Assembly: GCA_964016885.1 (NCBI GenBank)
Contig: CAXHJY010000330.1
Coordinates: 101,434 to 165,433 of the forward strand
Direction: 5' to 3'
Origin: Eledone cirrhosa
Taxonomy: Eukaryota
DNA: 64,000 nt
Shown: positions 4,952 to 29,683 of the stretch, piece by piece
Layout: each line of letters begins with the position of its first letter
How positions within the stretch are numbered: position 1 is the stretch's first letter
Translations under genes and position numbers: made by a program
The notes under the pieces: model-generated
What the model saw: only the letters and a program-made list of their open reading frames with translations
Databases searched by the model: none
What the model was told of the DNA's origin: nothing

Positions 4952-4954
<3 letters not shown>

Positions 4955-5305
4955 CGAAGGAAATGTGGTAAGGAACCAGGTGGACCATAACGCACCAGAG
5001 TACTCAATACTTAGGGTAGTAGAGTGGGAAATAGGAAGAGGTATGACCCCCGACGACAGAGCTACAGCCGTTTTGACGGCTATTTCTAGTCCATATATAG
5101 GAACTAGTAGGACCCCGACGGCTGAGCTCAAGCCGTTTCGACGGCTAATTCTGGACTCAAAAGATTTTAGTCCAGAATTAGCCGTCGAAACGGCTTGAGC
5201 TCAGCCGTCGGGGCCCTACTCGTTCCTATTACCCACTCTACTACCCTAAGTATTGAGTACTCTGGTGCGTTATGGTCCACCTGGTTCCTTACCACATTTC
5301 CTTCG

Positions 5306-6008: not shown

Positions 6009-6189
6009 ATGGCAGTATCGGTAGAGGGTCGGACGCCATGCTTTGCAGCAAAGAGTTACGGCCCTTTATGATCTGAGTTCAAATCCCGCCGAGGTTGACT
6101 TTGCCTTTCATCCTTACGGGGTCGATAAAATAAAGTACCAGTAATGTACTGGGTAATTGCTGGCCTTGTGCCTAAAGTAGAAACAATTA
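6009..6189 (+). mobile_element. SINE S1
   Basis: A/B boxes and central domain; ttaattagtt duplicated on both sides; inserted in the second unit of a ~160-bp tandem duplication (5828-6326). Confidence 0.85.
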
Positions 6190-6364
6190 ATTAGTTCTAT
6201 TTCCTACAAAACAACATTCTACCAGTTTGTTTTGTCCCTATGGAAGGTAAGGAAAAAAAACCCTTATTTATCTGTTTATTGGTCCCTTTAGATATCAACC
6301 AGCCCTTAAAAATCCTACTCTGTATGGTCAACAAAGATTGCTAAAACTCTGTGTGTAGATCACA

Positions 6365-18442: not shown

Positions 18443-19015
18443 CATCATCATCATCATCGTTTAACGTCCATGTTCCACGCTTGCATGGGTTTGGACGGGA
18501 GTTTTCCCACTTGAGGCAAGAGTGGTTGTCTTGCTCGCATAGGACTGTCTGGCGGGTTTTCTACAGCTGGATGCCCTTCCTAACACCAACCACATTTACA
18601 GTGTGGGGCTGGGAGGTTTTTGCCGTGTTGCCTACACAGCCACATTACAGCGTGGACTGTCTGGCGGGTTTTCTACAGTTGGATGCCCTTCCTAACACCA
18701 ACCACATTTACAGTGTGGGGCTGGGAGGTTTTTGCCGTGTTGCCTACACGGCCACATTACAGCGTGGACTGTCTGGCAGGTTTTCTACAGCTGGATGCCC
18801 TTCCCAACACCAACCACATTTACAGTGTGGACTGGGAGGTTTTTACCGTGTTACCTACACGGCCACATTACAGCGTGGACTGTGTGTTTTTTTGGTTTTT
18901 TTTGTCGTGACACCTATACGAGTGAGACACAGTCACCTGACCAATCTTGCCTCAAGTGGGACAGCTCCCGTCTAACCCATGTGGAAGATAGACGTTTAAA
19001 CGATGATGATGATCA
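18443..19015. repeat. RTE-tail SINE fragments in inverted arrangement with a 112-bp internal tandem
   Basis: Tail on minus (18443-18545), 112-bp unit x3, tail on plus (18920-19015). Related fragments at 8575-8815 (+) and 45616-45890 (-). Confidence 0.75.
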
Positions 19016-19554
19016 TGATATATATATATATATATATATATATAACAAAAAAGGTATGGTAAGATACCAGGTGGACCATAACACCCCAGAGTACTCGTAT
19101 GTAGGGTAGACGTTGGGGTCCTGACTCTTTTCCTATATATATAAAGTTTAACCTGTTTAGCTTGCTTCGTTTTTGGGGCTCCGGTGACTGATAGCTTTAT
19201 TACCGCCATTTTCACTTTGCATGGCCTCTCTAACATATGTTAATTGCTCTGGCCTTCCTTGTATATCTGATAAATTTCGACCTTACACACTTGCACCTCT
19301 CTAAGACAATGTCACTGGACCGAGATCTTTGGCGCTACGCAGTAATACAGAAGACCCACCTTGCCTATGTACAAAGCGAAACCAACAGTCAAGGAGGCAC
19401 CTCTTAACCAAATATACACCCCAATCCACTACCCCTACCCTAATATCCCACTCCCACCAACACCACCCTCTCTCTGTAAAGTTGGTACCACAACATCCAA
19501 TCCAAATAAATGAGATAATGTGATTGAGATAGAGATCGTGTAGGTGTCATGACA

Positions 19555-20425
19555 AAAAAAAACACACAGTCCACGCTGTAATGTGGCCGTGTAGGTGTCA
19601 CAACAAAAAACACACAGTCCACGCTGTAATGTGGCCGTGTAGGTGTCACAACAAAAAACACACAGTCCACGCTGTAATGTGGCCGTGTAGGTGTCACAAC
19701 AAAAAACACACAGTCCACGCTGTAATGTGGCCGTGTAGGTGTCACAACAAAAAACACACAGTCCACGCTGTAATGTGGTCGTGTAGGTGTCACAACAAAC
19801 AAACACACAGTCCACGCTGTAATGTGGCCGTGTAGGTGTCACAACAAAAAACACACAGTCCACGCTGTAATGTGGCCGTGTAGGTGTCACAACAAAAAAC
19901 ACACAGTCCACGCTGTAATGTGGCCGTGTAGGTGTCACAACAAACAAACACACAGTCCACGCTGTAATGTGGTCGTGTAGGTGTCACAACAAAAAACACA
20001 CAGTCCACGCTGTAATGTGGTCGTGTAGGTGTCACAACAAACAAACACACAGTCCACGCTGTAATGTGGTCGTGTAGGTGTCACAACAAAAAACACACAG
20101 TCCACGCTGTAATGTGGCCGTGTAGGTGTCACAACAAACAAACACACAGTCCACGCTGTAATGTGGTCGTGTAGGTGTCACAACAAACAAACACACAGTC
20201 CACGCTGTAATGTGGCCATGTAGGTAACACGGTAAAAAGTTCCCAGTTCCACACTGTAAATGTGGTTGGTGTTAGGAAGGGCATCCAGCCCTAGAAAACC
20301 TGCCAGATAGTCCTATATGAGTGAGACACGGTCACCCGACCAACCTTGCCTCAAGTGGGACAACTCCCGTCAAACCCATGCTAGCGTGGAAGATGGACGT
20401 TAAACGATGATGATGATGATGATGA
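19555..20425 (+). repeat. 48-49-bp minisatellite amplified from a SINE internal segment, followed by the RTE-type tail
   Basis: Unit cacacagtccacgctgtaatgtggccgtgtaggtgtcacaacaaaaaa x~14; the unamplified relative is at 63595-64000. Confidence 0.9.
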
Positions 20426-26737: not shown

Positions 26738-26827
<90 letters not shown>

Positions 26828-26868
26828 TATGTATGTATAGATCTCCCCATGCACATGCCAATATCAGC

Positions 26869-26904
<36 letters not shown>

Positions 26905-27146
26905 ATGTATGTATGCATATATAGTGTATATATTATGGTGATATTTGCATGTGCATGGGGAGACTTATACATACATAATAGACAATTTATATATTTAATT
27001 GAAAGTAGTCCCCCTCATACACATACACATACATATATATATATATGTATATATATATATGTATGTATATATATATATATATATATATGTATAGATATAT
27101 ATATATACATTTATATATATATACAATGCAGTGCTGCATCTACCCA

Positions 27147-29475: not shown

Positions 29476-29479
<4 letters not shown>

Positions 29480-29682
29480 TTAATATAGATGAGATTCTAC
29501 AGGACTAGAACTGTTTCATTCATTAGAAATCATCATTCATTAGAAATCATCATTCCTGATGATTTCTAATGAATGAAACAGTTCTAGTCCTGTAGAATCT
29601 CATCTATATTAAAACTGTTATACTCTGCTATGTATTGAGTACCTTACTTACTGTGGTTACCTCCGATTCAACCCGGAATAAC

Positions 29683-29683
<1 letters not shown>
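29476..29683 (+). mobile_element. Fold-back element family B
   Basis: Arm 29476-29536 is the reverse complement of 29557-29616; 3' extension with tattgagtacc; inside (TA)n. Confidence 0.75.
29552..29598 (+). ncRNA. Type I hammerhead ribozyme (family B) in fold-back element
   Basis: attc-CTGATGA-tttctaatgaat-GAAA-cagttctagtcctg-TA-gaat. Same family as 56377; helix I shortened to 4 bp by the inversion junction. Confidence 0.75.

Follow-up and report, generated by a model that had tools for sequence, protein, structure and literature searches.

Penelope-like elements (PLEs) are the closest relatives of telomerase RT, and how their inverted and tandem ends come about is described as an open question in the available text of PMC8557442 and PMC11167929. 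Already in print, as far as the available text of the papers cited here goes, are inverted PLE arms, tails, hammerheads in the pLTR and a self-priming proposal. Head-to-head pairs of one tailed and one tail-less arm are the known layout of PLE insertions (PMC8557442, PMC3846280), and the portion of PMC3846280 available favors self-priming on an antisense template. A literature search, with most subscription papers and supplements lying outside it, returned no paper tying PLE inversion points to a capped 5' end.

The locus described here is a hairpin in a 64,000-nt stretch of the Eledone cirrhosa genome, which we call the window, and it can be compared with several described systems in so far as their available text goes. 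With the PLE pLTRs of Arkhipova et al. (2013, PMC3846280), the element shares head-to-head arms, a tail on one arm, junction palindromes, and TATA and Inr-like motifs in the pLTR. Like the PLEs of Cervera and de la Pena (2014, PMC4209133), where a U3-A8 core has been reported, it has a type I hammerhead in the pLTR with this covariant core and dual motifs lying 100-700 bp from each other on the two strands; unlike the hammerheads in the available part of that paper, the one found here has a helix III of 5 bp, a loop II of ~35 nt, and a putative transcription start inside loop II. Hydra-clade PLEs (Craig et al. 2021, PMC8557442) likewise combine (TA)n targets with partial tandems, an inverted 5'-truncated copy and a tail, but in the text available their units are generally <3 kb and their hammerheads canonical, whereas here the unit is ~3.5 kb, the hammerhead is of the U3-A8 variety with a long loop II, and most copies are stubs. 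The tail here measures 76 nt, against the 30-40 bp given for PLEs in the same text. Poseidon PAc in vitro (Frangieh et al. 2024, PMC11167929) offers a parallel in that 2 adjacent internal RT start sites bound the tail, the target is AT-rich, extension takes place on both target strands and RNA that has not been cleaved serves as the main template. As far as its available text goes, that account explains the outer ends only, not the inner junction or a wall at the RNA 5' end. A further likeness is to LINE-1 twin priming, in which 2 target-primed cDNAs are end-joined and full-length 5' ends carry an extra G (PMC11702581, available text).

The hairpin and its full-length relatives

A preliminary description of the window, made from the letters alone, had read the hairpin at 5097-5229 as cDNA that snapped back and primed itself on helix II of a hammerhead ribozyme. 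The hairpin it reported is real, with 61-nt arms carrying 2 mismatches (5097-5157 and 5169-5229) around an 11-nt centre, CAAAAGATTTT, and a fold z-score of -24.6. Its reading of the sequence 3' of the turn as the 3' half of a hammerhead also holds, and this half is all of the ribozyme that the copy at 5097-5305 contains. With the G of GAAA (window 5187) counted as position 0 of the element, the plus-strand order is helix II 3' strand (5175-5186), GAAA (5187-5190), a 4-bp stem at helix III, the GUC site with a predicted cut after 5209, and the stem I 3' strand. Both outer ends of the insertion abut (TA)n, and the hairpin is a stub insertion of a (TA)n-targeting PLE, which we refer to as family A.

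The tail-less arm (5097-5157, minus strand) runs from element position +42 to -18, joins a short (TA)n at its outer end, and appears to be a cDNA primed from the left flank. Left arms mostly end at +42 and pass into (TA)n, with a plain ATATAT continuation in 52 of 66. The other arm is made up of the shared part (5169-5229, plus strand) and a 76-nt tail found on this arm only (5230-5305, plus strand), which ends near +118 and is 5' UTR in full-length copies. Between the arms lies C-AAAA-GA-TTTT (5158-5168), and the left arm ends GGACT-C. At 5158, the first C is complementary to a G just 5' of A(-18) that is likely cap-derived, and the A/T runs are likely untemplated additions, although three T also match native sequence. 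A(-18) itself, the A of TTAGTC at 5169 (plus strand), lies inside hammerhead loop II and is the putative main transcription start of family A. The outer inverted repeat around the hairpin arises because the neighboring segment at 4954-5092 (minus strand) is a tailed arm of another family A subfamily; this arm ends at -13, and its last 5 nt (-18 to -14) are inverted in place.

Uninverted cores, which gave 4,866 genome matches to a degenerate core pattern, have the order stem I, YTGANAA directly 3' of it, G-nn-CGGCTATT, a ~35-nt loop, TAGCCGTC, GAAA, helix III, GUC and stem I. Core position 8 is A in all 30 uninverted cores printed; among 15 aligned copies, 12 are U3-A8 and 3 are C3-A8, with GAAA and GUC kept in most. 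Uninverted family A copies therefore carry the type I hammerhead core pattern in its U3-A8 variant and are putative ribozymes. The absence of CTGANGA had been taken as a sign that half the core was deleted; the motif is indeed missing from the window copy, but all 30 uninverted cores printed lack it as well and carry YTGANAA. The perfect central stem of the window hairpin was made by inversion and is not native helix II; uninverted copies have a native AT-rich loop 5' of AGTCCAG, and their true helix II 5' strand (G-nn-CGGCTATT) lies ~45-55 nt upstream. The minimum-energy fold of an uninverted copy is a three-way junction no stabler than shuffles (z-score -0.37); paired cells amount to 92% in the copies aligned, with no two-sided changes among these close copies.

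Family A is abundant, its tail 23-mer having 24,737 exact matches in the 3.0-Gb genome, and pattern matching finds at least 10,139 short palindromes of its main subfamilies. Arm matches for families B and C number 27,663 and 37,858 genome-wide. Tens of thousands of independent insertions in this genome keep a record of each step. Full-length family A copies are present elsewhere in the genome, and an intact 718-aa frame at L166:4583-6736 contains, by motif inspection, FDIES, YRDD and YIG in that order, together with RLRWR (34), DKT (116), CNCPDRSIC (571), CNLC (669) and CKH (697), while GxKF/Y is absent. Searches of Pfam, NCBIfam and PDB with this ORF gave no match. On these motifs the element has the predicted make-up of an EN+ PLE, a single ORF encoding a PLE-type RT and, at its C-terminus, a GIY-YIG endonuclease, and it fits the Hydra clade as defined in the available text of PMC8557442 by RWK-like, DKT, CxCX5C linker, CxxC and CxH motifs, a GIY-YIG-like C-terminus and no GxKF/Y; RWR stands where that clade has RWK, and we otherwise count the motifs as the same. 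Partial tandems (pLTR), an inverted 5'-truncated copy and a tail at one end are present (L166-L171), and long insertions pair a tailed arm head to head with a tail-less one. The tail of ORF-bearing copies continues into the 5' UTR, ~95 nt before the ATG. The unit length of ~3.5 kb is taken from tandem spacing, and (TA)n insertion was seen in the copies sampled.

Several peculiarities were met along the way. The first full unit in L166 is 3,118 bp and, by deletion or template skip, is without ~425 nt of 3' UTR that are present in its own upstream partial copy (L166:3488-3915) and in other tandems of ~3,540 bp. On contig C2 (356030079-356031001), the tail/5' UTR junction occurs at least 4 times at 299-bp spacing, likely a chain of 5'-end pieces. 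A minus-strand frame at L063:2923-3930 belongs to another PLE-like RT/endonuclease fragment, unrelated to the first, that is inserted next to a family A copy, and L104 is a family B-type palindrome with part of a family A-type tail.

Where the arms end

Sorting the first 100 listed tail matches on contig C1 by hand gave short palindromes in 80 cases, plain truncations in 11 and long copies in 7; the remaining 2 were a long palindrome that jumps at -19 (L033) and a chimera with family B. Breakpoints were taken from exact matching and hand reading, excluding extension calls that overran self-similar AATT and A/T runs; the first 30 loci, biased by the query, were left out of the counts. In the 48 palindromes mapped exactly, all of which pass -8 with both arms and fit the search motif, the arms end from -8 to -24 and none goes beyond -24. 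The 48 have 44 distinct centres. As the preliminary description had anticipated, the breakpoints are clustered, far from uniform, and the palindromes are independent insertions with no single master. A non-autonomous master of MITE or retrozyme type, copied whole, was rejected on the number of distinct centres and on the existence of short family A copies without half the core. An assembly fold-back artefact was likewise rejected, given outer ends that are fixed and asymmetric, mutations that distinguish the arms, and plain copies that end at the same place.

In family A, one arm begins where the tail ends (+118), its partner at +42, and both stop near -18 (to -23). We call this limit the wall. 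The ends are ragged over -10 to -23, for which trimming or several start sites must be assumed, and both arms reach -22 in 411 loci genome-wide. By hand count, the tail-less arm is the longer by >8 nt in 14 of the 80 sampled palindromes and the tailed arm in 4 of 80, although the tail anchor of the sample favors the class with the longer tail-less arm. A longer tail-less arm cannot be a copy of the tailed cDNA, unless a deletion followed, and had the tail-less cDNA been copied, the tail would not have been supplied. At the centres, arms overlap by 0-1 nt or have a 1-nt insert in 25 of 48 cases and longer inserts in 15; an apparent microhomology of 3-4 nt is seen in 8 of 48, compared with 2% of simulated blunt joins, the observed share being inflated by choosing the best of 18 references.

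The 2 arms nearly always share subfamily variants, with exceptions in L056 and L078, which fits copying of one RNA and equally fits copying of one arm from the other. Among 30 loci with a 5' core, there were 12 events in which both arms pass the wall and none in which a long arm is paired with one ending at the wall; the rest show no partner arm within 1.5 kb. Since 12 events were long in both arms and 0 were mixed, the stop is a property of the template and not a chance stall. Deletions between short repeats have occurred within some arms (L044, L080, L102). The end segment occurs three times in L293, and A/T runs and end-segment repeats are also found in L101 and L128, all of which fit an enzyme at the end of its template. 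In a long palindrome (L028 / L065:4644-5764), the arms share the upstream sequence and differ in subfamily downstream of ~-9, possibly by a crossover near the wall. A T-to-C variant at +27 (window 5214) occurs in 140 vs 15,399 arms (0.9%), lies in tailed rather than tail-less arms by ~2:1 in the 100 listed (p=0.0009), and is almost never in both arms of one insertion; the T/C difference between arms was considered as a sign of 2 templates and dropped, since a variant of this frequency may be a later mutation.

Copies without an inverted arm respect the same wall, with plain copies joined to (TA)n at ~-18 in 685 matches vs 16 at +1 to +4. An additional base is often present there. By hand count, like all G counts given here, and among the first 100 matches listed, family A has an extra G at -19 in 17 of 86 loci, a position at which T or C is the element's own base and only T and A occur in the target. 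At the control positions, an extra G was found in 3 of 94 loci at -14/-15 (among the first 100 matches listed) and in 0 of 15 at +1 to +4 (all listed), giving Fisher p=0.0006 and p=0.07, respectively. At plain (TA)n junctions of family C, 21 of 76 loci show the extra G and 7 the native C (all listed). In family B, 37 of 92 loci among the first 100 matches listed have a G, which is ambiguous since it could pair as part of stem I. In L047, the G is found on both arms. An extra G is a recognized mark of cap copying in L1 insertions (PMC11702581, available text), and the wall G is likely of this cap type, an untemplated G from reverse transcription of the mRNA cap.

The position of the wall relative to the ribozyme varies, lying in loop II in family A, 6 nt 5' of C3 in family B and 80-90 nt 5' of C3 in family C. 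The wall base is A(-18) in family A, the A of CCAGATT in family B and the A of CACT in family C. Uninverted family A copies have a TATA-like TATTTAAA or TATATAAA 29 nt upstream of A(-18), and family B has a TATA-like TATAAATA 30 nt upstream of its wall (L248, counted by hand), while the spacing in family C is loose at ~18-31 nt (by eye). A AAATACCA motif upstream of the wall is common to families A and B. Among 30 loci in which the tail passes into the 5' UTR, two ORF-bearing copies begin at the wall behind an inverted arm (L308, L332), in five (L309-L311, L313 and L335) the wall sequence is joined to pieces of the 5' UTR or ORF start, and ordinary tandems with the native sequence upstream make up about half.

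Origin of the two arms

We consider it likely, judging from the pattern of arm ends and extra bases, that the arms are 2 separately primed cDNAs that ran off the 5' end of a capped mRNA and were joined head to head. The enzyme, probably as a dimer, would cut (TA)n and prime at 2 fixed RNA sites 76 nt apart (+42 and +118), one cDNA from each side of the cut. If the copy of the priming sites near the cap is engaged, only cDNAs of ~60 and ~136 nt would result, and if the copy at the 3' end of a read-through transcript is engaged, both arms would be long. At the end of its template the enzyme may add bases, stutter or jump to another RNA, after which the cDNA ends would lose 0-10 nt by trimming and undergo end-joining. 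The loop II start site of family A would split the ribozyme, leaving an mRNA 5' end with half the core missing and unable to cut itself in cis; the turn would fall within helix II only because the promoter lies there. In favor of 2 run-off cDNAs are the findings that either arm can be the longer and that long arms pair with long arms, along with the TATA-like motifs upstream of the family A and B walls, the ORF-bearing copies that begin at the wall, and the tail-bounding start sites of the PLE studied in vitro (PMC11167929); counting against them are the ragged ends, the microhomology, the subfamily variants shared by the arms, the ambiguous G of family B and the loose TATA spacing of family C. 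L1 inversions have scattered internal priming and little overlap, unlike the fixed start sites and arm overlap of ~60 nt found here.

Should the wall be the cap, a G on the 5' side of a sense-strand A indicates that a capped sense RNA served as template and was primed and copied twice, unlike the antisense self-priming proposed in the available text of PMC3846280. The turn would then give transcription start sites for any PLE family from DNA alone, and the family A promoter would halve the ribozyme at the mRNA 5' end while the 3' copy stays whole. The stubs, which fold into extended hairpins, can readily be taken for MITEs or microRNA precursors.

An extension of this scheme, which we regard as rather doubtful, is that PLE replication includes a strong-stop step like that of retroviruses. 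Both mRNA ends would contain a 40-nt repeat delimited by the promoter start (-18) and the ribozyme cut (+22); cutting would remove the 3' priming sites, so that reverse transcription would have to begin close to the cap and, after running off, transfer to the 3' end. The pLTR would be built by successful jumps, and the tens of thousands of mini-palindromes would be failed ones. The jumps from the wall in L309-L311, L313, L335 and L033 and the subfamily difference between the L028 arms downstream of the wall region are as expected for such a step, but the paired long arms fit read-through templates as well, and in vitro another PLE did not need ribozyme activity.

The wall could also be the RNA 5' end with only one cDNA involved, which folds back over a few bases and copies itself, a second priming supplying the tail or closing the flank. 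Self-priming has been proposed for PLEs (PMC3846280, available text), the arms share variants, 8 of the 48 centres show the apparent microhomology, and the family C 5' end is natively self-complementary, with a 5-nt overlap in the copy at window 43242. We nevertheless think this unlikely, as the blunt or nearly blunt centres and those with longer inserts do not resemble primed hairpins, both arms of L047 carry a cap-type G, and there is no consistent containment of one arm in the other. The more specific model of the preliminary description, in which cDNA folds back on helix II or another ribozyme stem, retains hardly any probability. The family A turn does lie between the 2 helix II strands, and by eye ~4 of the 50 centres listed, from 411 loci in all, still contain the 4-nt loop that natively caps an upper hairpin. 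No exact genome match exists, however, to the junction that snap-back on helix II should give, against 10,139 palindromes, and neither the native helix II 5' strand nor its loop was found between the arms in any of the 80 sampled palindromes. Self-priming is further opposed by the >8 nt present in the tail-less arm and absent from the tailed arm in 14 of 80, and by the wall, whose distance from the core is not the same in families A, B and C and where a cap-type G is present. A stem-paired junction does occur at stem I in 59 family B loci, ~1% of the family B short palindromes if 17 pairs per 100 listed arms is typical. The short arm is the tailed one in 4 of the 5 such loci fetched, so that this junction still needs a second priming. 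Contradicted as the main route, self-priming on ribozyme stems could remain as a route of about 1%.

Explanations that place the stop elsewhere than at an RNA 5' end appear weaker still than the self-copying cDNA. RT might stall at the tip of an extended helix II, the stalled ends then being joined; the predicted fold has a small upper hairpin (3' strand -22 to -14) whose tip (loop -26 to -23) would be right at the outer wall, and in family B the wall coincides with the 5' edge of stem I. This upper hairpin is poorly kept, with 7 of 8 pairs broken in some copies, independent stalls predict mostly mixed long and short arms where 0 mixed and 12 both-long were seen, and neither the position-specific G nor a family C wall far from the ribozyme is explained, so we find a stall very unlikely. 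Palindromes are unstable, and the arms with internal deletions between short repeats might suggest that longer palindromes were trimmed at the centre after insertion, the wall marking deletion hot spots. Yet the same wall, with its G, is seen in plain copies that have no inverted arm, and we judge such trimming highly improbable. A splice acceptor (pyrimidine tract plus AG) at the wall, with the arms copied from spliced RNA, recalls the 5' UTR intron of Penelope (PMC2377424, available text), and TTTAG|TCCAG (A), CCCAG (B) and TCCAG (C) do look acceptor-like. Many arms keep pyrimidines 5' of the AG (to -19 to -23), the centres have no common upstream exon and in family C the wall, the A of CACT, precedes the AG by 6 nt, all of which makes splicing extremely unlikely.

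Other palindromes and repeats in the window

An independent family A palindrome at 38261-38455 (plus strand) has a tail-less arm reaching -12 and a tailed arm reaching -19; the earlier observation that this copy turns at the same place is borne out at 38261-38377. An older family A variant at 34367-34501 (minus strand), read by eye, has a tailed arm to -8 and a tail-less arm from +4. It interrupts an RTE-like LINE fragment with a 60-bp internal tandem at 34140-35260. Of 2 family B palindromes, that at 29476-29683 (plus strand) has the whole core in its right arm, with CTGATGA at 29556 within the inverted repeat 29476-29616, and a 17-nt duplication at its centre, and that at 31258-31438 (plus strand) has a tail-less arm (to -17) longer than the tailed arm (from -5).

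Three family C palindromes, not named in the preliminary description, lie at 41718-42050, 43242-43578 and 43719-44021 (the latter 2 within 43242-44021). All have the core in both arms, and the first has the centre GGGTAGT-G-ACTACCC at the family C wall. The family F palindrome at 50996-51220 (plus strand) has a TTGAAAA (U3-A8 type) core in both arms and, read by eye, turns ~40 nt 5' of it. The proposal that the palindromes often delete half the catalytic core holds for family A, which loses the 5' half, but not for 29476-29616, family F or family C, which keep it.

An Rfam scan of the window had no hammerhead in the best 150 of 442 matches, which were microRNA models on simple repeats and hairpins; the family F copy gave weak microRNA-family matches. 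A repeat search of the window was dominated by (TA)n. Further possible PLE families are indicated by a hammerhead-type core (CTGATGA...GAAA) at 38057-38094 (minus strand) and by small inverted repeats at 26811-26994 and 55842-55914 beside (TA)n. Repeat copies at 6010-6200 and 33600-34130, the latter in tandem, we take to be SINE-like. The sequence at 48600-48800 reads by eye like a cadherin-repeat coding exon, and tandem arrays of 48-49 bp and 42 bp occupy 18494-20313 (with inverted partners at 18631-18894) and 31466-32200, respectively.
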